Positions 4,243-53,854 of a stretch of DNA of 64,000 bases are shown here, in pieces. Made by a program: the position numbers and the translations under genes. The stretch's first letter is position 1, and each line of letters starts with the position of its first letter. This DNA comes from Actinomycetota bacterium. GTDB lineage: Bacteria; Actinomycetota; AC-67. The stretch covers positions 2,492 through 66,491 of the forward strand of contig JBKKCR010000084.1 of NCBI GenBank assembly GCA_046712825.1, written 5' to 3'. The notes under the pieces were generated by a model. It saw nothing but the letters and a program-made list of their open reading frames with translations. It was not told the origin of the DNA and searched no databases.

Positions 4243-5192
4243 CGTTTTCCTCCACGGGTTGTTCGAACGAACTCTTCGACGGTTTCACGGCCCGAATACT
4301 TGGGACGCCAGCCGAGCACCCGCTCGGCCTTATCGCCGGAGACCAGCGGGGGCCGCTGGGCGATGATGACCCAGCCGGGATCGATCCCCATCGCCGGCCG
4401 GTACCGCTCGGCGAGTCGCGTTGCGAACCGCGCCACGCCGGCGGGAACGGTCACCAGGCGGGCGCCGGCGATCGTCGCCATGTCTCGGTAGGTCAGGGTG
4501 TCCGACGGCGAGATGTTGAACGCGCCGGTCGCATCCGACAGCGTCGCGAGTCGGAACGCCTCGACGACATCGTCGATGTGCACGTACTGCGTCGCGCTCG
4601 CGTTGCGTCCGGGCCGGACACTGAGTCCGCCGGCGAGTCGCGTCGCGAGCTCATGGGTGTTCGGTCCAAGGATGATCGAGGGACGGAGCCGGACGACTTG
4701 CAGCTGAGGGTGGCTCTTCTCTATCTCGTCGAGCGCGCGCTCGGCGGCGCCCTTCGTTCGCGAGTACGGGAACGCGTCGAGCGGCCGCAACGGGTCCTCC
4801 TCGGTGAGGAGCCTTCCCGCGACGCCGAATCCGTATGCCGCCACCGAGGACGCGTGGACCAAACGCCTGCATCCTGCCTTCGCTGCAGCCTCGGCGACGT
4901 TGGCCGTCCCGCGGACGTTGACGTCCTCCGCCAGCCGCATATCGCCGAGCACCACGGCCGCGAGGTGCACGACCACGTGGACACCAGCGAACCGGTCGGC
5001 GAGGGCCGGGTCGCGTATGTCCGCGAGGGCCCATTCGACCCCGGCGATGTCGCCTGAGACGCGGTCGATCGCGACGACGCGGCCGATCGCCGGGTCGTCG
5101 CGCAGGGCCGGAACGGCGGCCCGGCCGAGGAACCCGGCCGCCCCGGTCACCGCCACCCTCAACGTCCCGTCAGCCACTACGTTTTCCTCCAA
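4239..5192 (-). CDS. NAD-dependent epimerase/dehydratase (extended SDR)
   Basis: Rossmann motif VAVTGAAGFLG near the N-terminus and a YxxxK-type core. TTG start at 5192, or GTG at 5177. Confidence 0.8.
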   Translation of the reverse strand: MEENVVADGTLRVAVTGAAGFLGRAAVPALRDDPAIGRVVAIDRVSGDIAGVEWALADIRDPALADRFAGVHVVVHLAAVVLGDMRLAEDVNVRGTANVAEAAAKAGCRRLVHASSVAAYGFGVAGRLLTEEDPLRPLDAFPYSRTKGAAERALDEIEKSHPQLQVVRLRPSIILGPNTHELATRLAGGLSVRPGRNASATQYVHIDDVVEAFRLATLSDATGAFNISPSDTLTYRDMATIAGARLVTVPAGVARFATRLAERYRPAMGIDPGWVIIAQRPPLVSGDKAERVLGWRPKYSGRETVEEFVRTTRGGKR

Positions 5193-5203
5193 GGCTCTTG
5201 CGT

Positions 5204-5234
5204 GTTACCCTGAGTAACTGTTACCATGAGTAAC
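5204..5234. promoter_or_regulatory. two tandem 15-bp palindromes GTTACnnTGAGTAAC (5204-5218 and 5220-5234), candidate TetR operator
   Basis: Read directly: gttaccctgagtaac t gttaccatgagtaac. The second copy spans the ATG of the TetR gene at 5226. The sites sit in the 33-bp gap between the divergent epimerase and TetR genes. Confidence 0.5.
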
Positions 5235-5888
5235 GTGAACCTGTCAAGCATGGATACGACCAGAACCTCCCGCAAAGAAGCTCGCCGGGAGGAGCTGCTC
5301 GATGCCGCCGACCGGGCGATCCGCAAGGAAGGTCCGACGGTCTCGATGGACGAGATCGCCGCCGAGGCCGGCGTCACCAAGCCGATCCTGTACCGGCACT
5401 TCGGCGACAAGGCGGGGCTGTCCCAGGCGCTGGGGGAGCGCTACCTCGAGCTGCTCCTCGGCCGCCTGCACGAGGCCCTCGACCGCGAGACGGAGCCGGC
5501 CGGGCGGCTCTCGGCGACCATGGACGCGTACCTGGAGCTGATCGAGAAGGAACCTGAGATCTACCGCTTCGTGATCCAGGAAACGATCGCGGAACTCGCG
5601 ACGACGATCGCCGAGCGGCGCCAGGGGGGCGCAGCCGCGTCGAGCTTCCTGCGCGGCGTCGCCGCCGAGGTGACGCTCCTCCTCCGCACGGAGGCGGCGC
5701 GGTTCGACGTTGATGTCGAATTCGCCGAGGAATGGGCGCACGGGATCGTGGGCATGGTGCATCTAGCAGGCGACCGCTGGCTCGAGCGCCGCAACATGCC
5801 GCGCGAAAAGCTCGTCCTTTCCCTCACGACGCTCCTCCTCGGCGGACTGACATCGCTCGCCGCCCCCCAGCCGGACGCCCGCGACTAG
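5226..5888 (+). CDS. TetR family transcriptional regulator
   Basis: N-terminal HTH (EARREELLDAADRAIRKEGPTVSMDEIAAEAGVTKPILYRHFGDKAGL) followed by a helical ligand-binding domain. Confidence 0.85.
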   Translation: MSNVNLSSMDTTRTSRKEARREELLDAADRAIRKEGPTVSMDEIAAEAGVTKPILYRHFGDKAGLSQALGERYLELLLGRLHEALDRETEPAGRLSATMDAYLELIEKEPEIYRFVIQETIAELATTIAERRQGGAAASSFLRGVAAEVTLLLRTEAARFDVDVEFAEEWAHGIVGMVHLAGDRWLERRNMPREKLVLSLTTLLLGGLTSLAAPQPDARD

Positions 5889-5900
5889 CCGGGGCAGGGT

Positions 5901-7214
5901 TTGCGGCCGGCGAGAGAGAAACACCTCCACGTGGCTCGTCTCCGTAGGCTGATCTCTGTAGCGCTTCTCGTCGTTACGCTGCCGTTCGCGGCTGGTGCGG
6001 CTGAGACGCCGGCCGTGGGTTGCTCGTGGCCGGCGAAGATCGATGCCGACACGCTGAACTTCGCGTATCCCGACGAGTCCGCGACCTATTGGGTGACGCG
6101 GTTCGTTTCGATCCCCGGCGCGCATCTCGAGATCCGCGGCACCTATCCCGACGCGCGCTACTTCTCGTTCCACGCCTACGACGAGCTCCAACGGCCTGTC
6201 GGTTCGCTTGCAGACCGCGAGATCGCGCCCGACGCCGGCTCGATCAACCCGTTCGTCACCCCGGGAACGACCCCGGGCGGCGCGTTCACCGCGCACGTCG
6301 CCTTCTCAGGGAAGCCCGAGACGCCGGCGCCGAACACGCTCTACGCCGGCGCCACAGCGGACGGCCTCCCGAACCCTGCCGGCTTCATCCTCATGCGCGT
6401 CTACACGCCCGACGACGCGAGCGATCCCGCCGGCGGACAGCCGCTGCCGCTGATCACGCTCGTGCTACCCGGCGACGTGCGGGTCCCGTTCGCGCCTTGC
6501 GATCCGCTGCCCCCGGCGACCGGCGGCACGGTGACGACGGCGATCCGCGAGGCGTCGTTCCCCGACGCGATCCCGCGTGTGTTCCCCTTCGTGCCCACGG
6601 AGCAGACGCCGGAGTTCCGGCGCTTCTACGGCCTAGATCGCGTGCTCTGGGATCGCGTTCCGTCGAACCCGGCCACCGACGCTGTGCCGCGGTTCCAAGG
6701 CGGGTTCCTGTCGAACCAGCACATCGCGTACCTATACCGGATCCTCTCGCGCTCGTTCGGCGACGTGTTCGTCCTGCGCGCGAAGGCGCCGACGTTCCCG
6801 GACACCCGCGCCGGCGACGATCCGACCCAGCCGTCGCAGGTGCGGTACTGGTCGATCTGCCAGAACGAGCTCGCGACGCAGCGCTACATCGCGTGCCTCG
6901 CCGACCATCAGAGCGTCATCGGCGCCGACGGCTTCATGACGTTCGTGATCTCCGACCCGGCCGACAAGCCGTCGGACGCCGCGCTCGCGGTGCACGCGGC
7001 GAACTGGATCCCCTGGGGCGGCGTCTTCTACGACGGCCTCGTGATCTACCGTCACATGCTTCCGGCCTCTTCGTTCGCCGAAGCGATCCAGAACGTTCCG
7101 GAAGGCGCCGACGCCGCCGCGATCATGGGCGACTACTTCCCGCGGAGCGGCTACTGCACGACGCAGGAGTTCGAAGCCGGCGGCGCCGGCGCGTGCATCG
7201 ACACGGCAGCGTGA
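5901..7214 (+). CDS. secreted hypothetical protein with signal peptide
   Basis: Signal-like stretch LISVALLVVTLPFAAGAAE, so the true start is probably GTG near 5931. Pro/Thr/Asp-rich mature part. Its stop overlaps the next gene's start (GTGA). Confidence 0.6.
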   Translation: MRPAREKHLHVARLRRLISVALLVVTLPFAAGAAETPAVGCSWPAKIDADTLNFAYPDESATYWVTRFVSIPGAHLEIRGTYPDARYFSFHAYDELQRPVGSLADREIAPDAGSINPFVTPGTTPGGAFTAHVAFSGKPETPAPNTLYAGATADGLPNPAGFILMRVYTPDDASDPAGGQPLPLITLVLPGDVRVPFAPCDPLPPATGGTVTTAIREASFPDAIPRVFPFVPTEQTPEFRRFYGLDRVLWDRVPSNPATDAVPRFQGGFLSNQHIAYLYRILSRSFGDVFVLRAKAPTFPDTRAGDDPTQPSQVRYWSICQNELATQRYIACLADHQSVIGADGFMTFVISDPADKPSDAALAVHAANWIPWGGVFYDGLVIYRHMLPASSFAEAIQNVPEGADAAAIMGDYFPRSGYCTTQEFEAGGAGACIDTAA

Positions 7215-8080
7215 CGGTCGAACCGCGTGTGATCGTCTCCGGTCTCGGGTTCCCCGAAGGGCCGGTATTCCTCGGGAACGGCGAGGTCACGGTCACCGAG
7301 ATCCGTGGGCAATGCATCACTCGGTGCTCGGAAGACTCCAAGACCCTCGTCGCGAAGACCGGTGGGGGAGCCAACGGGGCGGCGCTGGGAGCCGACGGCG
7401 AGCTGTGGGTCGCGAACAACGGGGGATTGAGCCTGGGGCCCGGCGGCTACTGGCACGCGCCCGGCGGGCTCATCGAGGGGCGCATCCAGCGCGTCACGCT
7501 CGACGGAGGCTGTGAAGATCTCCCCGACCTGCCCGGCGACGCGCCGCACCGGCCCAACGACATCTGCTTTGGGCCCGACGGCAAGTTCTACTTCACCGAC
7601 CCGCGCAATTGGGAGGACTTCGCGAACCTGAAGGTCGGCCGGATCTGGCGGCTCGATCCGGGCACGCGTGAAACCGAGGTGATCGCCGACGTTCCGATGT
7701 TCTGCAACGGGATCGGGTTCGGCCTCGACGGGCGTCTCTACGTCGCGCAGTCCAACATCATGAAGATCATCGCTTTCGACTGGACGCCCGAAGGCGTGGG
7801 GGAGCCGCAGGAGTTCGTCACGCTCCCGCGCGGGTTCCCCGACGGGTTCTGCTTCGCGTCCGACGGGGACCTCTACGCGTGCGGCTCGATGGGCGACGTC
7901 ATCCAGGTGTACGACGCCGAGGGCACGCACAAGGAAACGATGGAGTTCCCCGAGCACACCGAGCCGACCAACGCCTGCATCGGCGACGGCACCTTGTACG
8001 TCACCTGCTCCGGCACCGGCGAGCTCGTGGCGTTCGATCTCGGCATCGAGCCGCTCCCTCTGTATCCCTTTCGTTCCTGA
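7211..8080 (+). CDS. SMP-30/gluconolactonase/LRE-like (SGL) beta-propeller protein
   Basis: Repeated propeller blade motifs (GLGFPEGP, ELWVANNGG, NDICFGPDGKFYFTD, GLDGRLYVA, PDGFCFASDGDLY). The N-terminal part of the long six-frame ORF 6020-8080 is Arg-rich artefact. The real start is GTG 7211, overlapping the upstream stop. Confidence 0.7.
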   Translation: MTVEPRVIVSGLGFPEGPVFLGNGEVTVTEIRGQCITRCSEDSKTLVAKTGGGANGAALGADGELWVANNGGLSLGPGGYWHAPGGLIEGRIQRVTLDGGCEDLPDLPGDAPHRPNDICFGPDGKFYFTDPRNWEDFANLKVGRIWRLDPGTRETEVIADVPMFCNGIGFGLDGRLYVAQSNIMKIIAFDWTPEGVGEPQEFVTLPRGFPDGFCFASDGDLYACGSMGDVIQVYDAEGTHKETMEFPEHTEPTNACIGDGTLYVTCSGTGELVAFDLGIEPLPLYPFRS

Positions 8081-37176: not shown

Positions 37177-39795
37177 GTGAGCAAGGACCTTCCAACAGGC
37201 GTCGTGACCTTCATGTTCACGGACATCGAAGGGTCGACCAAGCTCGTTCGCGAGCTCGGCGACCGGTACGGCGACGTGCTTGCCGATCAACGCCGGATCC
37301 TCCGAGAGGTTTGGCTAACCTGGCGGGGCGTCGAGCGAAGCACGGAGGGCGATTCTTTCTTCATCGTGTTCCGTTCGGCTGCGGATGCCGTCGGAGCGGC
37401 CGCGGAGGCGCAGCGAAGGCTGGCTGCGCACGAGTGGCCGCACGGGTGCCGGGTTCGTGTGCGCATAGGCATGCATACCGGCGCGACGCTCGTCGTGGAC
37501 GACGACTACTTCGGCATCGACGTGAATCGCGCCGCGCGGATAGCCGGCACGAGCCACGGAGGGCAGGTCGTGCTCTCCCGTGCGACGCGCGATCTCCTCG
37601 ATCCGCCGCCGGCGGGGATCGCGCTCAAGGACCTCGGCGAGCACCGCTTGAAGGACCTCGAGGAGCCGGAGTGGCTGTACCAGCTCGTCGGAGAAGGTCT
37701 GCCGGACGAATTCCCCGCGCTCCGCAGCCTCGAAGTCCCAACGAATCTCCCGACCCCTGCAACTTCGCTGATCGGTCGCGCGGCCGAGGTCGCCGAGCTG
37801 GAGGCACTGCTCGAACGGGACGAAACGAGGCTCGTCACGTTGACCGGACCCGGCGGCGCCGGCAAGACCCGGCTCGCGATCGAGGCGGCCGCGCGCGTGC
37901 GCGAGCGCTTCGCGAACGGCGTCTTCTTCGTCTCGCTGGCGGCGGTGACCGACCCCGCGGATGTGCTCCCGACGATCGCTCACGTCCTCGGCGTGGAGAT
38001 CGGATCCCGCAGGGTCGAAGAACGCCTGGCCGAAGACCTCCGGGTCCGATCGCTTCTTCTCGTGCTCGACAACTTCGAGCGCGTCGCGCGCGCTGCCCCG
38101 GGGATCGCAGCGCTTATCGCGGCGGCTCCTCGCCTGAAGGTTCTCGCGACGAGTCAGGCGTCCCTCCGGATCGGCGGGGAGCGCGAGTACGCCGTCGGTC
38201 CACTGGCGACCTCCGCCGGCACCGGCGGCCCCGAGGCGATCGACGACTCACCCGCCGCCGCGCTATTCCTCGAGCGAGCGCGAGCGGTAAAGCCTTCCTT
38301 GCGCGTGACGGCGGCGGATGCGGACGCCGTTCTCGAGATCTGCCGCAGGCTCGACGGGCTTCCTCTGGCGATCGAGCTGGCGGCCGCCCGGATGAAAACG
38401 CTTGCGCCGGGTCAGATCCTCCAACGGTTGGAAAGCCGGCTGACGCTTCTCAGGGGCGGTGCGCGAGACCTCCCTGCACGTCAGCAAACGCTGCGCGACA
38501 CGATCGCGTGGAGCGTCGATCTCCTCGAGCCTCCGGCCGCTTCGCTCTTCCGACACTTCGCCGTCTTCTCGGGCGGGGCAACCATCGATGCGCTCGAGGG
38601 CGTGCTCTCAGGTGACGACGAGGATCCGCTCGGTGCGCTCGACGTGCTCGTCGACCACAACCTCATCATCGCGACCGAGGCACAGGAGAAGCGATTCGAG
38701 ATGCTGCAGACGATCCGCGAGTTCGCGCTGGATCTGTTCGAGGGCTCCGGCGATGCGGAGGATCTCCGGGGCGCGCACGCCTCGTACTTCGCGGGCTTCG
38801 CTGAACGGGCCGACGCGGAGCTACGCGGGGCGGCCCAGAGCGAATGGCGGGTTCGTATCGAGGCCGAGCTCGCGAACTTCCGCGCGGCGCTCGCGTGGTG
38901 TTTCGAGGACGCTTCGCCGGGAGACCGGACCGTGCTCGGCGCGAGGCTCGCCGGAGCGCTCGGCTGGTTCTGGTACACGCACGCGGATGCGCTCGAGGGG
39001 TGTCGCTGGCTGGATCTCGCCCGGGAGAAGGTTCCGCACGCCGGCACAGAGCTGCGGGCCCGGGTCTTGGCGAGGCTCGGGGTGCTCCACGATCAGCGCG
39101 GAGACTTCGAGCCCGCCGCGCGGCTGTTCGAATCGGCCCTCGCCGCCTACCGGGAGCTCGGGGATCGGAGCGGGGTTGCGTCATCGCTCAACAGCTTGGG
39201 GTCGGCTGCCCGCAACGCCGGCGACATCCAGCGGGCCCGGACGTTCTTCGCGGAGAGCTTGTCGATAAGGCGCGCGATCGGGGATCCGGGCGGCGAAGCT
39301 TCCTCGACACACAACCTCGCCGTGATCGCGCTCGACGACGGGGATGGAGAGAGCGCGCGCGAGATGTTCGAGCGATGCATCCGGCTGGACGAGGCGGCCG
39401 GAAACGATTGGGGAGTTGCGGTCGACGGGTGCGGCCTCGCCGACGCGCTGCTGCTCGTCGGTGAGATCGAAGCCGCGGAAGCCAAGGCGGTCGAGTCGCT
39501 TCACGCCCTCGCATCCATCGGGGAGCGCGACTGGATGGCGGAGGCGCTGTCGATCATGTCGGGGATCGCGGCTGCGCGCGGCGACTTCGTCCGCGCCGCC
39601 CGGCTCGCCGGTGCGGCTTGGGGAACATGGAGGACGATCGGTTTTCCCCCCGTCGGCAAAGACCTAGAGCGTCATCACAAGCATTCCTCGGCGGCACGGG
39701 CCGGGTTGCCGGCCGCGGAGTTCGAGCGGGCGCACCTCGAGGGAGAGGCGATGACATTCGACCAGGCGATCGAGTACGCGACGCGCGCTCGCTGA
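37177..39795 (+). CDS. class III adenylate/guanylate cyclase domain-STAND NTPase-TPR protein without DNA-binding output
   Basis: N-terminal cyclase motifs (VTFMFTDIEGSTKL, GDSFFIVF, RVRIGMHTG), P-loop GPGGAGKTRLA, and C-terminal TPR-like repeats. It resembles the Mtb Rv0386/Rv1358 class but has no LuxR HTH. Confidence 0.85.
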   Translation: MSKDLPTGVVTFMFTDIEGSTKLVRELGDRYGDVLADQRRILREVWLTWRGVERSTEGDSFFIVFRSAADAVGAAAEAQRRLAAHEWPHGCRVRVRIGMHTGATLVVDDDYFGIDVNRAARIAGTSHGGQVVLSRATRDLLDPPPAGIALKDLGEHRLKDLEEPEWLYQLVGEGLPDEFPALRSLEVPTNLPTPATSLIGRAAEVAELEALLERDETRLVTLTGPGGAGKTRLAIEAAARVRERFANGVFFVSLAAVTDPADVLPTIAHVLGVEIGSRRVEERLAEDLRVRSLLLVLDNFERVARAAPGIAALIAAAPRLKVLATSQASLRIGGEREYAVGPLATSAGTGGPEAIDDSPAAALFLERARAVKPSLRVTAADADAVLEICRRLDGLPLAIELAAARMKTLAPGQILQRLESRLTLLRGGARDLPARQQTLRDTIAWSVDLLEPPAASLFRHFAVFSGGATIDALEGVLSGDDEDPLGALDVLVDHNLIIATEAQEKRFEMLQTIREFALDLFEGSGDAEDLRGAHASYFAGFAERADAELRGAAQSEWRVRIEAELANFRAALAWCFEDASPGDRTVLGARLAGALGWFWYTHADALEGCRWLDLAREKVPHAGTELRARVLARLGVLHDQRGDFEPAARLFESALAAYRELGDRSGVASSLNSLGSAARNAGDIQRARTFFAESLSIRRAIGDPGGEASSTHNLAVIALDDGDGESAREMFERCIRLDEAAGNDWGVAVDGCGLADALLLVGEIEAAEAKAVESLHALASIGERDWMAEALSIMSGIAAARGDFVRAARLAGAAWGTWRTIGFPPVGKDLERHHKHSSAARAGLPAAEFERAHLEGEAMTFDQAIEYATRAR

Positions 39796-44738: not shown

Positions 44739-47700
44739 TTGTCGGCCAGGTGGGCGCAGGCGATGTCTTTCGGAGAGACCGGCGAGAGCCCCGGAAGGGC
44801 TCCCTCGTTGTTTAGACTCCTTGGGCCGATGAACTGCCCGTCCTGCACGGCAACGAACCCCGACGACGCTTCCTTCTGCGGGAGCTGCGGGACGCCGCTC
44901 GCACCCGAAGGCCCCTGTCCGCGGTGCAACCGGACGAATCCACTCGATCTGAAGTTCTGCCGGGGATGCGGGTACCGGCTCGGCGCCGCCGAGCCTGCAC
45001 GGCAACCCAGTCTTCCCTCCGCGTTCGCGGGAGGCCGGTACAAGGTCGAGCGCTTCCTCGGCGAGGGGGGCCGCAAGCGGGTGTTCCTCGCTCACGACTC
45101 GCGACTCGAGCGCGACGTCGCGCTGGCGCTCATCAAGACCGAGGGGCTCGACCAATCCGGGCTCGACCGGGTCCGCTTCGAGGCGCAGGCGATGGCCCGC
45201 CTCGGGGACCATCAGAACATCGTGACCGTCTTCGACGTGGTGGAGGAGGACGGCTCTATGTATCTGGTGTGTCAGTACATGAGCGGCGGATCGGTTGAAG
45301 ATCTCATCGCCGCCGCGGACGGCCGCGGGCTGCCCTTGGAAGACACGGTGCGCATCGGCGGCCAGGTCGCGCACGCCCTCGAGCACGCGCACGGCCGTGG
45401 CGTCGTCCACCGGGATGTGAAGCCGGGGAACGTTTGGCTCCAAGAGAACGGCAGCGCACGTCTGGGCGACTTCGGGCTCGCGGTCGCCCTCGACCGATCG
45501 CGGCTCACCGCGGAGGGCATGATGCTCGGCACCGTCGCGTACATGGCGCCGGAGCAAGCCATGGGGCGGCCCCCCGACGCCCGGAGCGACCTGTATTCGC
45601 TCGGCGCGATGCTCTACGAGATGCTGACCGGACGTCCGCCGTTCCTCGGCGACGAAGCCGTCGCGATCATCTCGCAGCACATCGGTACCGCTCCGGTCGC
45701 GCCGTCGTGGCACACCCCCGACGTACCACCGGCCCTCGAGCGGTTGGTGCTGGGATTGCTCGCGAAGGATCCCGAGAAGCGGCTCCAGTCGGCGACCGAG
45801 GTCCGCGACGCGCTCGTCAAGATCGCGACGGCCACCACCACGGCCGGTCCATCCGCCGCGGCGCGCGAGGAGGCGAACCCGCTCGACCGGCTCGCCGGCG
45901 GCGTCTTCGTCGGGCGCGAACGAGAGATGGACGATCTACGCGCCGGCTTGGACGACGCGCTCTCGGGTCGAGGACGTCTCTTGCTCCTCATGGGAGAGCC
46001 GGGGATCGGCAAGACGCGCATGGCCGACGAGCTCACCACCTACGCCAGGTTGCGCGGCGCGCAGGTCTTGGTGGGTCGCTGCTACGAAGGCGAAGGCGCG
46101 CCGGCGTACTGGCCGTGGGTCCAGGTGATCCGCGCGTTCATCCACGACCGCGACGCCGCGGCGCTCACGTCGGTCATGGGCACCGGCGCGCCGGAGATCG
46201 CCCAGATCGTTTCGGACGTTCGCGAACGGATCCCGGACCTGCCCGAGCCGCCGGCGCTCGACCCAGAGCAAGCCCGGTTCCGCCTCTTCGATGCGATCGC
46301 AACGTTCCTCAAGAGCGCCTCCCGCGCGCAGCCGCTCGTGATCGTGCTCGACGACCTGCATTGGGCCGACAAGCCGACGCTGCTATTGCTCCAATTCCTC
46401 GCGCGAGAGCTGCGCTCGAGCAGGCTGCTGGTGCTCGGCACCTATCGGGATGTGGAGCTCCGGCGCCAGCATCCGCTGGCTCAGGCACTCGCCGAGCTCG
46501 CCCGCGAGCAGGTGAGCCAGCGGGTGATATTGCGAGGGCTCATGGTGGACGACGTAGCGCGCTTCATCGAGATGACGTGCGGCGTGCAACCCCCGCCCGA
46601 GCTCGTTCGAGCGGTTCACCGCGAGACGGAGGGAAACCCGTTCTTCGTCGCGGAGATCGTGCGTCTCCTCGCCAGCGAAGGGAAATTCGAGGATCCCGGG
46701 GAGAGCTCGTGGAGTCTGAGCATCCCTCAGAGCGTGCGGGAGGTGATCGGCCGCCGGCTCGATCAGCTCTCGGAGAAGACCAACGCGCTGCTGTCTATCG
46801 CTGCCGTCGCCGGGCGCGAGTTTCCGCTCGGGGTCGTTCAAGCGGTGAGCGACCTCGATCCGGCATCGGTGATGGACGCGGTCGACGAGGCACGCGCCGC
46901 TCGTGTGATCGGAGAGGCGCCTCGATCGGTTGATCGTTACATCTTCTCGCACGCGTTGATCCGCGAGACCTTGTACGAGGAGATCCCGACGACGCGCCGC
47001 GTGATGCTCCATCGGCGGATGGGTGAGACGCTCGAGATGCTGTACGGGGAACGCAACACCGCGAATCTTTCGGAGCTTGCTTACCACTTCCTCGAGGCCG
47101 CTCCGGGCGGGGACGTCGGCAAGGCCATCGACTACGCGAGCGCCGCGGCGAAGCGTGCGACCGAGCTTCTCGCCTACGAGGAAGCGGCGCGTCACTACCA
47201 GAGGGCCATCGAGGCGATGTCGCTGCTCGAAACGCCCGACGAGGCTCTGCGGTGCCGGTTCTTGCTGGCGCTCGGCGACGCGCAGCGACGGTCCGGCGAC
47301 GTCGACGCCGCCCGAGCGGCCTTCTTCGACGCGGCAGCCCGCTCTCGCAAGATCGGCGACGCACCCTCCCTCGCCGAAGCGGCGATCGGCTTGCAAGCCG
47401 GTGCCGCGTTCGGTCAGGTGGACGAGAAGCGAGTGGTGATCCTCGAGCAGGCGATCGAGGCGATCGGCGAAAACGATCTCGCGCTCCGTTCTCGTCTCCT
47501 CGGCCACCTGGCTCGCGCGCTGTACTTCTCCGACGATTTCGAGCCCGTGCGCGCGTTGGGCGATCAGACTGTGGCCGTGGCCGAGTCGGCCGATGATCCG
47601 GTGGCGCTCGCCGAGGCGCTCAGTACTCGCGCGTACGTCTTGTGGGCGGTCGAGCCGCCTGAGGCTCGTGAGGCGGCCGGCGGCAGGATCGCCGACATCG

Positions 47701-49223
47701 CTCGCCGCGTCGGTGATGTCGAGCTCGAGCTGGACGGGTTGATGTGGCGGATCATCGCGTTCACCGATATGGGTGACCTCGCCCGCTCGAAGGCGGCGAT
47801 CGACGAATACACCCGAGTTGCGGAGGCGTCCCACATCCCCCGGTACCGGCTGTACGCCCTCTCCCGACAAGCGATGCTCGCCTCCGTTTTCGGACGCTTC
47901 GAGGAGGCGGAACGGCTCTCACTCGAGGCGTTCCGGATCGGCACCAACGCACAGGAGCCGGACGCCATCCAAGTGCGGGCTGGACAGGCATTCGCCAACG
48001 CCTTCGCCACCGGGAACCGTGAGACCATGGCCTGGTCCCAGCAGTCGCTCAAGACCTATGCGGCGACGTACTCAGCCCGGCAACCCTGGACGCGCGTGTT
48101 CGTGTCCCTGGGCGCCTACAGACTCGGCGACACCGCCGAGGCGGTCCGGGAGTTCGACAGAGCCTTCGCCGAAGGTTTGGTGACCCTTCCCGCGCAAGGC
48201 GTGTCGTCCGGGATGATGCTCGCGACGGCGGCCGTGCTCTGCGGACTCTTGGATCGACCCGAAGAGGCGGAGCAGATCGAACCGCTGATCCGGCCCTTCG
48301 AGAAGCGGGTGATCATGGGGGCAGGCGCTGTGTTCTGCAACGGGGTGGGCGCCCGCTATCTCGGGATCCTCGCGACGGTTCGCGGACGTTACGACGAGGC
48401 CGACCGGTTCTTCCGTTGGGGGGTTGATCGTTGCCGGTCGATGGGCGCGCGGCCCTGGGTAGCCGAGATCCTTCACGATCACGCCACGATGCTGCTTGCC
48501 CGCCGCGGGGCCGGCGACGTGGACGAGGCGATTCGCCACCTGGACGGGGCCCTGGAGATAGCGAAAGAGCTCGGGATGTCGCCGCTCGCCGAACGAGCTC
48601 TCCAGCAGAAGATGAGCGCGCAAGGCATGGTGCTCCCCACCGACATCAAGAGCTCGATCGACCGTGTCGCCTCATCGTTGGAGCGCGAACGCCCGAACCT
48701 TCGCAGCCACGCGGCACCGGACGGCACGGTTACCTTGCTCTTCACCGACATCGAGGGTTCCACCGCACTGAACGAACAGGTCGGCGACCGGCGGTGGATC
48801 GAGTTGCTCCGCATGCACAACGCGATCGTGCGCGAGCAGGTCGCCGCGCAGGGTGGGTTCGAGGTGAAATCCTCGGGCGACGGATTCATGGTCGCGTTCT
48901 CCTCGGCGCGACGTGCGGTCGCTTGCGCGGTCGAGGTCCAACGCGCGCTCGCCGAGCACGCGGACAAGGCTCCCGACGACGGGATCCGTGTGCGCATCGG
49001 CTTGCACACCGGTGAGGCGATCGCGGAGGAGGGCGACTTCTACGGACGACACGTCAACCTCGCGGCCCGGGTCGGCGCCGCGGCCGAGGGAGGCGAGATC
49101 CTCGTTTCATCCTTGCTGCGAGAGCTCACGGCCTCCAGCAAAGAGTTCGAGTTCGGCGAGGCGCGCGACGTTCAGCTCAAAGGCCTTACCGGCACGCATC
49201 GGCTCTACCCGGTGAGGTGGTGA
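44739..49223 (+). CDS. multidomain signalling protein: double zinc-ribbon, Ser/Thr protein kinase, STAND/AAA NTPase, TPR-like region, C-terminal class III adenylate/guanylate cyclase (1494 aa)
   Basis: N-terminal CPSC...CGSC and CPRC...CRGC. Kinase motifs HRDVKPGN, DFG and APE. P-loop GEPGIGKTRMA with hhhhDD Walker B (LVIVLDDLHW). Long helical TPR-like middle region. C-terminal cyclase (VTLLFTDIEGSTAL, GDGFMVAF, RVRIGLHTGEA). An alternative start at ATG 44829 (MNCPSC) is possible. Confidence 0.9.
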   Translation: MSARWAQAMSFGETGESPGRAPSLFRLLGPMNCPSCTATNPDDASFCGSCGTPLAPEGPCPRCNRTNPLDLKFCRGCGYRLGAAEPARQPSLPSAFAGGRYKVERFLGEGGRKRVFLAHDSRLERDVALALIKTEGLDQSGLDRVRFEAQAMARLGDHQNIVTVFDVVEEDGSMYLVCQYMSGGSVEDLIAAADGRGLPLEDTVRIGGQVAHALEHAHGRGVVHRDVKPGNVWLQENGSARLGDFGLAVALDRSRLTAEGMMLGTVAYMAPEQAMGRPPDARSDLYSLGAMLYEMLTGRPPFLGDEAVAIISQHIGTAPVAPSWHTPDVPPALERLVLGLLAKDPEKRLQSATEVRDALVKIATATTTAGPSAAAREEANPLDRLAGGVFVGREREMDDLRAGLDDALSGRGRLLLLMGEPGIGKTRMADELTTYARLRGAQVLVGRCYEGEGAPAYWPWVQVIRAFIHDRDAAALTSVMGTGAPEIAQIVSDVRERIPDLPEPPALDPEQARFRLFDAIATFLKSASRAQPLVIVLDDLHWADKPTLLLLQFLARELRSSRLLVLGTYRDVELRRQHPLAQALAELAREQVSQRVILRGLMVDDVARFIEMTCGVQPPPELVRAVHRETEGNPFFVAEIVRLLASEGKFEDPGESSWSLSIPQSVREVIGRRLDQLSEKTNALLSIAAVAGREFPLGVVQAVSDLDPASVMDAVDEARAARVIGEAPRSVDRYIFSHALIRETLYEEIPTTRRVMLHRRMGETLEMLYGERNTANLSELAYHFLEAAPGGDVGKAIDYASAAAKRATELLAYEEAARHYQRAIEAMSLLETPDEALRCRFLLALGDAQRRSGDVDAARAAFFDAAARSRKIGDAPSLAEAAIGLQAGAAFGQVDEKRVVILEQAIEAIGENDLALRSRLLGHLARALYFSDDFEPVRALGDQTVAVAESADDPVALAEALSTRAYVLWAVEPPEAREAAGGRIADIARRVGDVELELDGLMWRIIAFTDMGDLARSKAAIDEYTRVAEASHIPRYRLYALSRQAMLASVFGRFEEAERLSLEAFRIGTNAQEPDAIQVRAGQAFANAFATGNRETMAWSQQSLKTYAATYSARQPWTRVFVSLGAYRLGDTAEAVREFDRAFAEGLVTLPAQGVSSGMMLATAAVLCGLLDRPEEAEQIEPLIRPFEKRVIMGAGAVFCNGVGARYLGILATVRGRYDEADRFFRWGVDRCRSMGARPWVAEILHDHATMLLARRGAGDVDEAIRHLDGALEIAKELGMSPLAERALQQKMSAQGMVLPTDIKSSIDRVASSLERERPNLRSHAAPDGTVTLLFTDIEGSTALNEQVGDRRWIELLRMHNAIVREQVAAQGGFEVKSSGDGFMVAFSSARRAVACAVEVQRALAEHADKAPDDGIRVRIGLHTGEAIAEEGDFYGRHVNLAARVGAAAEGGEILVSSLLRELTASSKEFEFGEARDVQLKGLTGTHRLYPVRW

Positions 49224-49882
49224 TGACCCAGGGCTTCGTCGCCGCGCTGGAGCCGGGCGACCTCGAGGCGCTGACGGCGTGGGGACGCGCGCGGCGTTTC
49301 CGTCGCGGAGCGATCCTCTTCCACGAAGGCGAAGGTGCCGAGCACGTCCTCATCGTTCGAGCCGGCCGCGTGAAAGTTTCGAGCTTCACCGCCGACGGCA
49401 GGGAGGTGGTCCTCGCGGTTCGCGGGCCCGGCGAGCTGCTCGGGGAGCTCTCCGCTATCGATGGTGAGCCGCGTTCGGCCTCGGCGAGCGCGCTCGAGCA
49501 GGTCGACGTGCTGAGCGTGCCGGCCGAAGACTTCCGCGCCTTCCTGGAGATGCGTCCGCGCGTCACCGTATCGCTCATGCAGATGCTCTCCCGGAAGCTC
49601 CGCGACGCCGACCGGAAACGCATCGAGTTCGGCGCGCACGACACCGTTGGGCGCGTTTGCCACCGGCTGGTCGAGCTCGCAGAGCGTTTCGGAGAAGAGT
49701 CCACGCGCGGGCTCCGCATCACGCTCCCGCTGTCGCAGCAAGAGCTCGCCGGATGGACCGGCGCGTCCAGGGAGGCCGTGAGCAAGGCGCTCCACCAGCT
49801 CCGATCGCGCGGCTACATCGAGACCGCGCGCCGCGGGATCACCGTCCTCGACATGCCGGCGCTCCGTCGCCGCGCGATGTGA
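49217..49882 (+). CDS. Crp/Fnr family transcriptional regulator (cNMP-binding domain plus HTH)
   Basis: cNMP-binding beta-roll (ILFHEGEGAEHVLIVRAGRVKV...GELLGELSAIDGEPRSASA) and C-terminal HTH (LSQQELAGWTGASREAVSKALHQLRSRGYI). Start GTG 49217 or ATG 49220 overlaps the kinase-cyclase stop. Confidence 0.85.
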   Translation: MVMTQGFVAALEPGDLEALTAWGRARRFRRGAILFHEGEGAEHVLIVRAGRVKVSSFTADGREVVLAVRGPGELLGELSAIDGEPRSASASALEQVDVLSVPAEDFRAFLEMRPRVTVSLMQMLSRKLRDADRKRIEFGAHDTVGRVCHRLVELAERFGEESTRGLRITLPLSQQELAGWTGASREAVSKALHQLRSRGYIETARRGITVLDMPALRRRAM

Positions 49883-49895
49883 AGGGAGACCATCG

Positions 49896-50603
49896 ATGGC
49901 AGAGCTCGGCACGATCCTCGGCGTCTGGGCGCATCCCGACGACGAGACGTACCTGACCGCCGGGCTCATGGCTCGAGCGGCGGACGACGGCGATCGGGTC
50001 GTGTGCGTGACGGCGACGAAGGGCGAAGGCGGCTCCTGGGACGAGAAGCGCTGGCCGTCGGAGACGATGGGCCGGGTGCGAGACGCCGAGCTGATGGAGT
50101 CGCTGCGCATCCTCGGCGTGAAGGAGCACCACTGGCTCGGCTACATCGACGGTTCGTGCGCTGATGTTCCTCCCGAGGAAGCTACGGCGAAGGTGCAAGC
50201 GATCATGGAAGAGGTGTCACCGGACTCCGTCTTCACGTTCGGGCCCGACGGGATGACCGATCACGCCGATCACAAGGCCGTCTGCGCCTGGACGACTGAG
50301 GCCTTCCGACGCTCGGGGAAGCCGGGGGCGAAGCTCTATTACGCGACGACCACCAAGGAGTGGGCGGAGGAGTTCGTTCCTCGCATGAACAAATTCAATG
50401 TGTTCGCTCCCGGATTGCCGCCGGTCAGTCCGCCGGACGAGCTGGCGATCGACTTCGCGCTCGATCCCGACCTGATGGACCGCAAGCTGCAGGCGATCGA
50501 GGCGCACGTGTCGCAGGTCGAGTACATGCTTCGCTACTTCGGCGCAGACTTCTTCCGTGAGGCGCACAAGATCGAGCTGTTCCGGCTCGCAGAGTCTCGG
50601 TGA
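49896..50603 (+). CDS. PIG-L family (LmbE-like) N-acetylglucosaminyl deacetylase
   Basis: VWAHPDDE and HxDH (DHADH) motifs. Confidence 0.85.
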   Translation: MAELGTILGVWAHPDDETYLTAGLMARAADDGDRVVCVTATKGEGGSWDEKRWPSETMGRVRDAELMESLRILGVKEHHWLGYIDGSCADVPPEEATAKVQAIMEEVSPDSVFTFGPDGMTDHADHKAVCAWTTEAFRRSGKPGAKLYYATTTKEWAEEFVPRMNKFNVFAPGLPPVSPPDELAIDFALDPDLMDRKLQAIEAHVSQVEYMLRYFGADFFREAHKIELFRLAESR

Positions 50604-50641
50604 GCGTGGGTTGGGCTCGGACTGGGTAGGGGAACGAGGTT

Positions 50642-52042
50642 ATGCCTAGGAAGCGCCGACCCCCGCCGGAGGAGACCGTCGCGAGCGAGTTCTCCGCCGA
50701 GCTCGAGCCGCACATAGGCGAGCTCGACGGGGTCGAGATCATCTGCGGGATCCCATCGTTCAACAACGTCCGAACGATCCCCAACGTCGTCCGCGCCGTA
50801 GAGGCCGGGCTGCGCCGGGCCTTCCCCGGCGTCTCGGCCGCCATCGTCGTGTCGGACGGCGGATCCGAGGACGGCACCGTCGCTGCCGCGATGGAAGCAT
50901 CGACCGGTCCCGACGAAGAGTTCCTGCTGATCGATCCGAAGGCGCCTTCGCCGAAGCGGCTCGCCCTCCGGTACCGCGGGATCTCCGGGAAGGGAAGCGC
51001 GTTCCGGACGCTGTTCTCCGTCGTCGAGACGGTCGGCGCCCGGGCGTGCGCCGTCTTCGACTCGGATCTCCGCTCGATCACGCCGCAGTGGGTCGAGTCG
51101 CTGTTGCGGCCGGTGCTCGTGAACGGACACGACTTCGTCGCGCCGATGTACGCGCGCCACAAGTACGACGGAACGATAACCAACGCGATCGCGTTCCCAC
51201 TGACGTCCGCGCTCTACGGGTCGCTCGTCCGCCAGCCGATCGGCGGAGAGTTCGGCTTCTCAGGCCGGATGGCCGCGAGCTGGGCGCACCGCGACGTCTG
51301 GGGCACCGACGTCGCCCGGTACGGCATCGACATCTGGATGACCACGACGGCGATCGTCGAAGGCTTCCGCGTTTGTCAGACGCAGCTGGGCGCGAAGGTC
51401 CACGATGCGAAAGACCCCGGGACGCATCTCGGCCCGATGTTCCGGCAAGTCGTCGGATCGCTGTTCGCCCTCGCCGGCCGGTACTCCGACCGATGGAGCG
51501 ACGTCGAGGACATGACGCCGGTCCCCACGTATGGCTTCCGCGCCGCGACGTCGGCCGAGGAGATCCGCATCAAGGCCGGGCGGCTCACCTGGCGCTTCAT
51601 CGAGGGATACATGAAGTACGAGAAACTCTGGCGCGACGTCCTTTCGGCCGAGACGCTCAACGCGGTGGTGCGGGCGACGGACGAAGCCGCCGAGAAGACC
51701 GAGGGTTTCGTGCTCCCAGCCGACCTGTGGGCGCACATCGTCTACGACTACTTGGTAGCGTTCAGTGCCGCGGAGTTCGACTCGTCGGTGCTTCTAGACT
51801 CGATGATCCCGCTTTACTTCGCACGGACGGCGACGTTCGTGCAGGAAGCCTCCGGCGACGATCAGTACGCGGCTGAGGAGCGTATAGGCCGGTACGCCGA
51901 CCTCTTCCTCGAACGCAAGCCCTATCTGCTCCGCCGCTGGGCCGAAGCGGGTGTCCAGCGCACCCTCGCCGAGCAGACGGTTCCGCCTGCGGGCATCGAG
52001 GCGTCGGAAACCTCGGAGATGCTCGGCGCCCAGTCCGACTGA
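50642..52042 (+). CDS. GT-A fold glycosyltransferase, mannosylglycerate-synthase (GT78)-like with C-terminal helical domain
   Basis: IICGIPSFNN...VVSDGGSEDGT, DSDL (DxD), and HDFVAPMYARHKYDGTITNAI resembling the MGS segment VRHYFPRASTDAMIT. Similarity judged from memory of MGS. Confidence 0.7.
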   Translation: MPRKRRPPPEETVASEFSAELEPHIGELDGVEIICGIPSFNNVRTIPNVVRAVEAGLRRAFPGVSAAIVVSDGGSEDGTVAAAMEASTGPDEEFLLIDPKAPSPKRLALRYRGISGKGSAFRTLFSVVETVGARACAVFDSDLRSITPQWVESLLRPVLVNGHDFVAPMYARHKYDGTITNAIAFPLTSALYGSLVRQPIGGEFGFSGRMAASWAHRDVWGTDVARYGIDIWMTTTAIVEGFRVCQTQLGAKVHDAKDPGTHLGPMFRQVVGSLFALAGRYSDRWSDVEDMTPVPTYGFRAATSAEEIRIKAGRLTWRFIEGYMKYEKLWRDVLSAETLNAVVRATDEAAEKTEGFVLPADLWAHIVYDYLVAFSAAEFDSSVLLDSMIPLYFARTATFVQEASGDDQYAAEERIGRYADLFLERKPYLLRRWAEAGVQRTLAEQTVPPAGIEASETSEMLGAQSD

Positions 52043-52109
52043 GCGCTACGCTTCGTCCAGCTCGGTTGTGACCAACCGGGCGGATCGCTTCCCCTGTGAG
52101 GAGGTCCGG

Positions 52110-52808
52110 ATGCGACGGCTCGTTCTCTGTGCGCTGGTCGTCGGCCTCCTGATCGGGGCAGATCCTTTGGCCGCCTCAGCCAACGACCCACCCATTGCAC
52201 AAGGGACCGGTGACATCACGCGGTCGGTCGACGAACTATGGGCAGATGTCGGCAAGATAGTCCCCGAATTCGGAGGGTTCTTCTACAGCCAGGAACAGCG
52301 CGCATTGAAGATCTATGTAACCGCACAGCGGCCGGGTATTGCGGAAGACCTGAGGGCCGCGCTCGAGAGTGTTTTCAAGTCGAACCTCGACGGCCAGTCT
52401 CTCGACAACATCGTCCTGCTCGAGGGGCGCTACGGCATGCTGCAGCTCATAGAGTGGCGCGATCGCATGCGCCGGGGAAGCATGATGTCGGTGCGTTGCG
52501 TGACCTCGATCGGATTCGCGGAACCCGAGAATAGGCTGCGCGTCAGAGTTGAGGGATTGGGCGCGAAACCACTTGTTGAGAGCAAGCTCGACGAGCTCGG
52601 CATTCCTCGAGAGGCAGTGATCATCAAGCAAGGCGTCGTACAGTTGCTCGGAGGCACATCCCCGCATCAATCGCCGGATCCTAGATGCGCTGCGCCAAAC
52701 AAGATGGGCGTTGTTTGGTGGGTCGGGGGAGCGGGCGCTCTGATCCTGGCGGCCGGAGTTGCTAGGTTGCTTTTCGCGAGACGTTCAGCGAAGCCTGTGC
52801 TGGCTTAG
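52110..52808 (+). CDS. hypothetical secreted protein with C-terminal membrane anchor, atypical (lower-GC) composition
   Basis: Strong SD (gaggagg) upstream of ATG 52110. Signal peptide LVLCALVVGLLIGADPLAASA and a C-terminal hydrophobic anchor (VVWWVGGAGALILAAGVARLLF). Codon third positions are noticeably A/T-richer than in neighbouring genes. Confidence 0.55.
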   Translation: MRRLVLCALVVGLLIGADPLAASANDPPIAQGTGDITRSVDELWADVGKIVPEFGGFFYSQEQRALKIYVTAQRPGIAEDLRAALESVFKSNLDGQSLDNIVLLEGRYGMLQLIEWRDRMRRGSMMSVRCVTSIGFAEPENRLRVRVEGLGAKPLVESKLDELGIPREAVIIKQGVVQLLGGTSPHQSPDPRCAAPNKMGVVWWVGGAGALILAAGVARLLFARRSAKPVLA

Positions 52809-53854
52809 AGGGTCGCGGCCTGCTCTTCTTCCTCGTCCGTCAAAGCCTTGACGTGCGCCGCGATCTGCTCCATCGGCGGGCGCTCGACCTCGATGCTGTT
52901 GTGGATCTCGATGCCGTCCGGTGAGGGACGCAGCAGTGGCGCGGCAGAGAAATCGATTCCGGAACGCATACGCCCCCGCTCTTCGGCCCGGCGCAGGATC
53001 GTTTTGCCGATCGTGTACGCCATCGGCCCCAGCTCGGCGAGCGACCGATTCCGGTGGATGCGCTCGTCGAGGTCGACCTGCGCCATCGCGTCGAGACCAA
53101 CGGTGTCGAGCAGGTCGATCAGCAGGCCGACTTCCACGCTGTACCCGGTGAAGAACGGCACGCGCTTGAGGACGTCGATGTGGCCGGCGTACTCGCCGGA
53201 CAGCGGCTGGATGAACCCGGACAGCTCGGGGAACAGCGCCGCCAGCATCGGACGGGCGAGGAGCTCGGTGACGCGGCCGCCCTCGTCGGGGATCAGCTCT
53301 TCCCCGCGCGCGATCGGGCGGCGGTAGAAGCCCTTGGTGAAGGAGATCGTCGGGTCGCTCAGGATCGGCGCGACGAGGCGCGTCACGAACCGCGTGGAGA
53401 AATTGCGGATGTCGGAGTCGACCCACACGACGATGTCGCCGGACACAACCGAAAGGCTCCGCCACAACGCTTCGCCCTTGCCGAGCACGACCGGCATCTC
53501 GGGGACGAGGTCGGAGATGTCGTGCACGATCGCGCCGGCCTCGGTCGCGATCTCGGGTGTGCCGTCCTCCGACGAGCAATCGACAACGAGCAACTCATCG
53601 ACGAGACCCGAGCCTTCGATCAGGTGTCGCTTGATCGTCGAGCAGATCGGACCGATCGTGGCAGCTTCGTTGAGCGCGGGAAGCACCACGCTGATGCGCT
53701 CGCCCGACGCGAGCTTGCGGGCGGCGAGCTCGCGGGCGCCCGGCAAGTTGCGCGATCCGAACGTGCGATGCCGGTGCCAGCGTTGCGCCAGGCCCGTGAG
53801 CCAAGGGAACTCGTAGGCTTCGTTCGAACCGGTCACCATGTCGTCCTCCGGCAA
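52805..53854 (-). CDS. gpgS: glucosyl-3-phosphoglycerate synthase (GpgS, GT81)
   Basis: ISVVLPALNEAATIG, DxD (VDSD) and overall collinearity with the mycobacterial GpgS family. Confidence 0.8.
   Translation of the reverse strand: MPEDDMVTGSNEAYEFPWLTGLAQRWHRHRTFGSRNLPGARELAARKLASGERISVVLPALNEAATIGPICSTIKRHLIEGSGLVDELLVVDCSSEDGTPEIATEAGAIVHDISDLVPEMPVVLGKGEALWRSLSVVSGDIVVWVDSDIRNFSTRFVTRLVAPILSDPTISFTKGFYRRPIARGEELIPDEGGRVTELLARPMLAALFPELSGFIQPLSGEYAGHIDVLKRVPFFTGYSVEVGLLIDLLDTVGLDAMAQVDLDERIHRNRSLAELGPMAYTIGKTILRRAEERGRMRSGIDFSAAPLLRPSPDGIEIHNSIEVERPPMEQIAAHVKALTDEEEEQAATL

Follow-up and report, generated by a model that had tools for sequence, protein, structure and literature searches.

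A 64,000-nucleotide stretch of a contig assigned to an Actinomycetota bacterium (GenBank assembly GCA_046712825.1, contig JBKKCR010000084.1), which in its full length is referred to here as the window and has a guanine plus cytosine content of ~68%, carries a gene for a large multidomain signalling protein that runs directly into a gene for a Crp/Fnr-family transcription factor. The large gene occupies positions 44829..49223 and, according to open reading frame (ORF) calls, Pfam matches and homologue alignments, encodes 1464 amino acids in which a zinc ribbon, a Ser/Thr kinase, a nucleoside triphosphatase (NTPase) of the STAND type (signal transduction ATPases that carry numerous domains), a tetratricopeptide repeat (TPR) region and a class III cyclase follow one another. 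The individual window features for which coordinates are given below lie on the + strand.

The ORF listing and a motif check of the translation place the gene in one unbroken frame (44739..49223), in which the hallmark motifs picked out by an earlier reading made from the sequence alone (HRDVKPGN, DFG, APE, GEPGIGKT, FTDIEGST, GDGFMVAF and RIGLHTGEA) are all present. That sequence-only reading had given a length of 1494 amino acids; the single frame stands, but the length does not, as it rests on the longest possible start (TTG 44739) and homologues favour 1464 amino acids. A further upstream start, ATG 44763, is the one called by NCBI (P0001, 1486 amino acids). ATG 44829 is probably the true start, rather than either of these, because homologues begin with M-x-CPSC, the consensus N-terminus of the family alignment, and because a conserved hairpin and a conserved TAGACT lie just upstream. 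The hairpin (44786..44802), found in a scan for terminator-like sites, is GC-rich with a T-rich tail, lies 5' of the gene in the manner of a terminator or insulator, and is kept in the loci L081, L082, L087, L085 and L001, where the stem sequences differ through compensating changes. The TAGACT (44813..44818) is almost invariant in an alignment of upstream regions and is a candidate -10 box of the form TANNNT; lying 10 nucleotides ahead of the ATG, it would give a near-leaderless transcript. A promoter scan returned nothing of the sigma-70 type.

The chance that two genes have been fused through a sequencing or assembly error, for which no supporting point was found, is negligible: homologues of equal length (median 1466 amino acids) align collinearly from end to end in more than 100 independent assemblies, isolate genomes included, which in practice rules out a frameshift or misassembly and bears out the earlier view of a single gene.

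Domain organisation and conservation

Residue numbers count from ATG 44829. The protein opens with a double zinc ribbon of four CxxC pairs (residues 3-48, 44835..44972; Pfam DZR, E 1.2e-9); in the family alignment its eight Cys are conserved to at least 90%. There follows a Hanks-type Ser/Thr kinase domain (residues 71-323, 45039..45797; Pfam Pkinase, E 5e-48, 164 bits vs a cut-off of 31.7), whose best solved match is PknB (1MRU, E 1e-52). The catalytic Lys, the alpha-C Glu and the HRDVKPGN, DFG and APE motifs by which Hanks-type kinases are recognised are all present, and the domain is predicted to be active.

The middle of the protein is taken up by a STAND-type nucleotide-binding oligomerisation domain (NOD), consisting of a P-loop nucleotide-binding domain, a helical domain and a winged helix, at residues ~355-720 with approximate boundaries (45891..46988; AAA_16 at 360-535, E 8e-33). 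It has the Walker A motif GEPGIGKT and a Walker B motif of the form hhhhDD, as a P-loop NTPase should. An all-helical TPR-like solenoid, the presumed sensor, extends over residues ~721-1264 (46989..48620) and was recognised from a structure model and from matches to TPR_12 (1177-1247, E 5e-12) and, weakly, TPR_MalT. A sequence search of the PDB with residues 338-1290 gave zero matches. An AlphaFold model of residues 345-1300, built on a 78-sequence family alignment (mean pLDDT, the predicted local distance difference test score, 86.5), shows an alpha/beta NTPase followed by helical and winged-helix modules and then ~25 paired helices. When this model was compared with the PDB by Foldseek, 6MFV ranked first (E 2e-12), followed by Avs3, Apaf-1 and CED-4, with MalT (8BOB) twentieth. 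The assignment of the middle region as a STAND NTPase with a TPR sensor is thus supported by predicted structure as well as by Pfam, and the kinase at the N-terminus and the cyclase at the C-terminus occupy the protein ends at which STAND effector domains are expected. The earlier domain calls were all correct by Pfam profile search and, for the STAND-TPR part, by the model also.

A pre-cyclase segment (48642..48722), whose homologue in Ma1120 of Mycobacterium avium is the N-terminal helix region (alignment to 4WP3 chain A, chain residues 14-40), leads into a class III adenylyl cyclase catalytic domain at residues 1297-1457 (48717..49199; Guanylate_cyc, E 5e-22, 78.8 bits vs a gathering cut-off of 21.9; 4WP3, E 3e-54). 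Catalytic residues were mapped by alignment to Ma1120 with the roles described for its K101, D157, A164 and R168 (PMC4215837). The metal-binding Asp pair corresponds to D1307 and D1351, the substrate pair to K1347 and D1403, a Lys/Asp combination of the ATP type, and the transition-state pair to N1410 and R1414, the canonical Asn/Arg; from these residues the cyclase is predicted to be active and ATP-specific. Ma1120 (PDB 4WP3, 4WP8 and 4WP9), an experimentally active adenylyl cyclase, is 55-60% identical over the cyclase and the preceding helix segment and has the same Lys/Asp substrate pair, metal-binding Asp and Arg (PMC4215837). It differs in being a stand-alone protein of ~210 amino acids with Ala at the position of the transition-state Asn, whereas the window protein retains the Asn and carries its cyclase at the C-terminus of a 1464-residue chain.

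Conservation was followed in 136 full-length members, 42-81% identical, that were aligned with MAFFT. In the kinase, E118, D196, N201, D214 and T235 are present in all 136 and K103 in 132; Walker A GEPGIGKT is invariant (136/136), and the two Walker B Asp are found in 129/136 and 135/136. The cyclase residues D1307, D1351 and R1414 occur in every member, K1347 in 125/136 and D1403 in 127/136. Eight of the 136 have Glu instead of the adenine-specifying Lys at 1347, and these may be guanylyl-cyclase variants. Identity to the consensus is 0.70-0.87 over residues 351-800 vs 0.50-0.58 over residues 801-1200, the NOD being the most conserved part of the family protein and the TPR region the least, as would be expected of a switch joined to a diversifying sensor.

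A widespread family and its named relatives

A protein database search at E <= 1e-10 returned 6327 proteins, of which the best 120 were examined; these are 45-81% identical to the window protein, mostly with 92-100% query coverage. AAA_16 (PF13191) and Guanylate_cyc (PF00211) are found in all of the best 120, and so is Pkinase (PF00069), bar two N-terminally truncated entries. Source names, where given among them, are 'protein kinase' or 'class 3 adenylate cyclase'. At least 579 relatives emerged from a scan that took one genome per species, and in 53 of the best 80, which were kept as loci, the match runs through the cyclase end. Represented are Actinomycetota, Dehalococcoidia/Chloroflexota, Binatia, Myxococcota, Opitutales, Margulisiibacteriota and one Methanobacteriota metagenome-assembled genome (MAG). 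The closest relatives belong to soil Actinomycetota MAGs, and among the carriers in culture are Mycobacterium gastri DSM 43505, M. colombiense and Mycolicibacterium hodleri. Six phylogenetically distant members have an identical domain order at near-identical coordinates by Pfam. The homologue in L042 (6001-10359), which is full length, 42% identical and of the same domain order, comes from a MAG labelled Methanobacteriota archaeon and could reflect horizontal transfer or a binning error.

Variant architectures are also seen. Many relatives are kinase-NOD-TPR proteins without a cyclase and match the query over ~60-1260 only (L024, L029, L035, L057, L079 at 2605-7481, and others). Some database relatives have an extra domain, either GGDEF (P0095, P0047 and P0087) or a metallophosphoesterase (P0117).

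Literature searches found no paper describing this exact domain order. The architecture, which the sequence-only reading had taken to be unusual, is nevertheless common, since the Pfam set recurs in the best 120 of the 6327 matches and the order in the six distant members, and its suggestion that a chain joining kinase to cyclase was undescribed is refuted by two precedents, the NCBIfam family TIGR03903 and Myxococcus xanthus Pkn2 (PMC1262709). The modules themselves have established precedents in kinases of the STAND type, in STAND cyclases and in chains that fuse kinase to cyclase. On sequence comparison the window protein belongs to a widespread family of cytoplasmic STAND proteins that carries generic annotations and is catalogued yet biochemically uncharacterised; the original observation is confirmed, its interpretation is partly supported and its claim to novelty falls.

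The best NCBIfam match of the protein is TIGR03903, named for the thiazole/oxazole-modified microcin (TOMM) system as 'TOMM system kinase/cyclase fusion protein', at 336.4 bits against a curated cut-off of 705.75. Both join, on one chain, a Ser/Thr kinase to a domain homologous to class III cyclases and to an NTPase region of the STAND type. Separate scans of protein pieces place the kinase of the TIGR03903 profile at 4-242, the cyclase at 356-457 and the NTPase at 482-928, and the cyclase thus lies between kinase and NTPase, whereas the order in the window protein is kinase-NTPase-TPR-cyclase. The neighbourhood of a TIGR03903 gene holds, by definition, TOMM cyclodehydratase and precursor genes; no TOMM biosynthesis genes were found near the window gene, which is surrounded by genes for a CitMHS transporter, an alcohol dehydrogenase, a DUF1326 protein, Crp, PIG-L and GT2. 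Membership in TIGR03903 was ruled out on the score, which is under the cut-off, and on the permuted domain order.

PknK of M. tuberculosis (Rv3080c) is a STAND Ser/Thr kinase (PMC4381067) that combines a kinase with a MalT-like region (PMC1262709). Compared by description, its N-terminal Hanks kinase, MalT-like NOD and helical repeat sensor are analogous in architecture to residues 60-1260 of the window protein, but PknK is without a C-terminal cyclase. It is presumably also without the zinc-ribbon prefix. Rv0386, Rv1358 and Rv2488c of M. tuberculosis are proteins of the form cyclase-ATPase-(TPR)-LuxR (bioRxiv 10.1101/2024.03.06.583649) and resemble the window protein in joining a class III cyclase to a STAND-type ATPase and TPR region. 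Their cyclase lies at the N-terminus, with a LuxR DNA-binding domain as the second effector, whereas the window protein has its kinase at the N-terminus and its cyclase at the C-terminus. The window also encodes a protein of their kind, at 37177..39795, in which LuxR is missing. M. xanthus Pkn2 consists of a kinase, a guanylate cyclase and a transmembrane segment, and a Clostridium kinase-TPR-GGDEF protein has been described alongside it (Krupa & Srinivasan 2005, PMC1262709). Pkn2 and the eukaryotic receptor guanylyl cyclases resemble the window protein in placing a cyclase on one polypeptide with a kinase or a kinase-like domain, but they are membrane proteins that have neither a STAND NTPase nor a TPR region, and in the eukaryotic cyclases the kinase-like domain is catalytically dead. 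PH0952 (6MFV) and MalT, STAND proteins that sense through a TPR region, are among the best structural matches of the NOD-plus-TPR core and differ in having a single DNA-binding effector, whereas the window protein has two enzymatic effectors.

The Crp paralogue and the genes around it

The Crp/Fnr-family gene (49217..49882) encodes a transcription factor with a cyclic nucleotide monophosphate (cNMP) binding domain (cNMP_binding, E 3e-25, 88.3 bits) and a helix-turn-helix (HTH) domain (HTH_Crp_2, E 6e-21, 74.7 bits), both above their cut-offs. The junction with the large gene reads AGG TGG TGA TGA CC, in which the TGA stop of the large gene is at 49221-49223 and the Crp gene may start at GTG 49217, GTG 49220 or ATG 49223; the overlap of 1-7 nucleotides agrees with the overlapping stop and start first noted here.

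The 220-residue product resembles M. tuberculosis Crp (Rv3676) and Corynebacterium GlxR, aligning over its full length and matching the M. tuberculosis Crp structures at E 1e-38. It reads GELS...PRSAS and REAVSKAL, compared with GELS...PRTSS and RETVNKAL in M. tuberculosis Crp. In proteins of this family the G-E ... R-S/T residues serve the cNMP pocket and R-E-x-x-x-K/R the recognition helix. With pocket motifs retained in the Crp protein and catalytic motifs in the cyclase, binding of cyclic AMP (cAMP) by the former and activity of the latter are both plausible, as had been proposed. The protein scores 81.3 bits vs the equivalog cut-off of 266 of NCBIfam NF008732 and, because this is far under the cut-off, it is regarded as a paralogue rather than the global Crp. 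No other cNMP-binding ORF was found in the 64-kb window.

Within a close clade of ten members, at 66-81% identity to the window protein, the large gene is followed by a Crp gene (215-221 amino acids) and a PIG-L gene in eight (the window, P0002, P0003, P0006, P0013, P0018, P0011 and P0014); in these the stop of the large gene overlaps or abuts the Crp start. In the window the PIG-L family deacetylase gene (49896..50603, from ORF and domain annotation) begins 13 nucleotides past Crp and has its own ribosome-binding site, AGGGAGA. PIG-L always comes after the large gene within the clade, with or without Crp between, a scan found no terminator-like site between the large gene, Crp and PIG-L, and PIG-L is probably in the same operon as the other two. 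A gene for a glycosyltransferase like those of family 2 (GT2; 50642..52042, from domain annotation and synteny) lies further downstream, is kept in part of the clade and is a candidate for either a target or a context gene. The clade-conserved downstream set (window positions 49896-53854, and L081-L087) comprises PIG-L, one or more GT2-like genes, a convergent GT2 gene, an S-adenosylmethionine (SAM) methyltransferase and a Lactamase_B-fold protein, and is possibly an envelope/glycoconjugate cluster, for which the Crp paralogue is a candidate regulator. A clustering census of flank ORFs found clade syntenies only and no neighbour conserved across the family, such as a PP2C or FHA partner.

Outside the clade, all flank ORFs of the best 80 species-genome loci (631 kb) were searched with an iterated hidden Markov model. 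Proteins with a cNMP-binding domain lie within 6 kb in 8 of the 80 loci and are encoded by the next gene in L020, L023, L031 and L046. In L023, where the large protein is 47% identical, the neighbour is a 58%-identical Crp in divergent orientation; L020 and L046 have stand-alone cNMP-binding proteins directly downstream; proteins with acyltransferase-like and cNMP parts are found in L031 (adjacent) and L003; and L019, L022 and L036 have, upstream, a mycobacterial protein with parts resembling the major facilitator superfamily (MFS), a cNMP domain and patatin. The density of cNMP-binding genes in M. tuberculosis is ~1 per 440 kb, and at such a density ~1.4 loci would be expected in 631 kb of flanks, compared with the 8 seen. 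This enrichment is supportive, not decisive, and a functional link between cyclase and receptor that has arisen repeatedly is plausible. Crp/Fnr-like HTH proteins occur in two further loci, L079 and L040; the former, whose family protein is of the cyclase-less kinase-NOD-TPR form, has a convergent Crp/Fnr-like gene directly downstream. The mycobacterial protein is ~1100 amino acids long (L022 1461-4844, L036 856-4221, L019 3-1607), with an MFS-like N-terminal half, a patatin-like C-terminal region and the cNMP domain, the last being the only one of its domains detected computationally. It is encoded on the same strand, ~1.2-1.8 kb upstream of the family gene in Mycobacterium relatives, and we take it to resemble Rv3239c.

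Proposed mode of action and competing explanations

STAND proteins pass from an autoinhibited ADP-bound monomer to an ATP-bound multimer and may carry effector domains at either end (PMC6468293). The reading preferred here, to which a probability of roughly 0.5 is given, is modelled on that paradigm (PMC6468293, PMC4381067) and holds that a STAND switch turns on both end effectors in parallel through oligomerisation, with the resulting cAMP read by the Crp paralogue in this lineage. The resting protein would be a closed, ADP-bound monomer, and binding of a ligand or partner to the variable TPR sensor would lead to ATP binding and to oligomerisation via the NOD. The C-terminal cyclase domains would then be juxtaposed and cAMP synthesis would start, while the N-terminal kinase domains, likewise juxtaposed, could undergo trans-autophosphorylation, the two simultaneous outputs being cAMP and protein phosphorylation. 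In this lineage the co-translated Crp paralogue would read the cAMP and plausibly control the adjacent envelope/glycoconjugate genes.

Active sites of class III cyclases form only across a dimer interface, and PknB-like kinases are activated through dimerisation and trans-autophosphorylation. The Ma1120 monomer is reportedly autoinhibited by its N-terminal helix, an account that goes back to Barathy et al. in 2015. A single oligomerisation that switches both ends would be the simplest model because STAND proteins multimerise and both enzymes depend on dimers, and the two enzymes would be interchangeable end effectors because cyclase-less relatives exist and TIGR03903 has a permuted order. A more specific proposal goes further, namely that the family forms a hitherto unrecognised class of dual-output intracellular receptors fired by one ligand-gated STAND event and that the Crp paralogue of this clade, tied to the large gene through translational coupling, constitutes a private cAMP circuit over the PIG-L/GT2 envelope-glycosylation cluster, insulated from the global pool; this is tentative and on balance doubtful.

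Several observations weigh against parallel outputs read by Crp. Ligand, oligomerisation, kinase substrates and cAMP output are all inferred. Ile replaces the transition-state Asn (1410) in 75 of the 136 aligned members, although Ma1120, with Ala there, is active. Matches to TGTGA-N6-TCACA with up to 2 mismatches number 2 in the window vs 10 expected, with none near the operon. The excess of cNMP-binding neighbours loses significance if the background is 1 per 100 kb or higher, and no Crp-type gene lies downstream on the same strand in the best 80 species-genome loci. Within the close clade, L001 and P0010 are without Crp and have PIG-L directly after the large gene. Because Crp is absent at most family loci and has been lost in the L001/P0010 branch, the Crp link may be dispensable or incidental. 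The Crp operon is a lineage-specific feature and not a property of the protein family, and the self-contained relay put forward in the sequence-only reading is not supported as a property of the protein, given that Crp adjoins it in one clade only and has been lost even there. L001 and P0010 are 85% identical to one another, and of the relatives listed P0006 (77%), which carries Crp, is nearest to them, a pattern that points to one secondary loss. The loss is precise (L001 10386-10409; L085 6667-6685), with PIG-L starting ~20 nucleotides past the stop of the large gene.

Two alternatives are each considered unlikely. The first is a serial phospho-to-cAMP relay in which the kinase phosphorylates its own or a partner chain and toggles the cyclase, the cAMP then passing to the co-translated Crp. 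Kinase and cyclase are both catalytically intact by motif and always together in the family, Crp is coupled in the close clade, and three residues before or at the cyclase start (S1276, T1300 and T1302) are Ser/Thr in at least 97% of members, Ma1120 having Arg and Val at the positions of T1300 and T1302. The kinase, however, is without a sensor of its own, zinc ribbons aside, and the TPR sensor and NOD switch are placed between the catalytic domains, as in STAND proteins with output ends, while the cyclase-less relatives and the permuted TIGR03903 order speak for independent modules. An arrangement of kinase input and cyclase output would agree less closely with the STAND paradigm than a pair of parallel outputs and is less favoured, because the only recognisable sensor sits between the enzymes and relatives have the cyclase missing or shifted.

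The second is that the adjacency of Crp is incidental, the Crp protein being a local regulator of the PIG-L/glycosyltransferase cluster that responds to a general cAMP pool fed by several cyclases. This would agree with the branch that dropped Crp and retained the large gene, PIG-L and GT2, with the presence of a second STAND cyclase in the same window, with the lack of a family-wide neighbour and with the 46 further species-genome loci in which both a cyclase and sequence downstream are present, none of them with a Crp after the gene. It is harder to reconcile with a stop and start that overlap or abut in 8 independent assemblies across 66-81% identity, with the divergent Crp of L023, and with other cNMP-binding proteins as immediate neighbours in L020, L031 and L046.

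That the protein is a STAND system of the Avs/NLR type serving in conflict or against phages, in which the TPR region senses a phage protein and cAMP and phosphorylation trigger defence, is very unlikely. The fold matches Avs3, the sensor region is variable, the kinase matches PADLOC kinase models, PD-T4-6 and MAD6 among them, and the cNMP domain of Crp matches Pycsar-type effector models, but these PADLOC matches span only the generic kinase or cNMP domain and there is no toxic effector domain. The locus moreover lies amid a CitMHS transporter, an alcohol dehydrogenase and glycosyltransferases, with synteny stable across 66-81% identity, and the protein keeps its length, with 42-55% identity between phyla, in contrast to defence genes, which diversify fast. 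The defence reading was set aside on the generic nature of the PADLOC matches and the housekeeping genomic context.

If the parallel STAND mechanism is correct, the family would offer a clean bacterial case of one switch with two outputs, a second messenger and phosphorylation, and a cyclase operon-coupled to its own Crp paralogue would bear on how cAMP specificity is achieved in cells with many cyclases. The locus is of interest mainly for the putative private Crp circuit of this clade and for a STAND design with two effectors, and the members in the cultured M. gastri, M. colombiense and Mycolicibacterium hodleri make the family experimentally tractable.

The second STAND-type cyclase of the window is encoded 5 kb upstream of the large gene (37177..39795, 872 amino acids). 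It matches Guanylate_cyc at residues 7-160, together with AAA_16/NB-ARC/AAA_22 and TPR_12/TPR_10, and has no LuxR domain. A homologue occurs at the equivalent relative position in L083.

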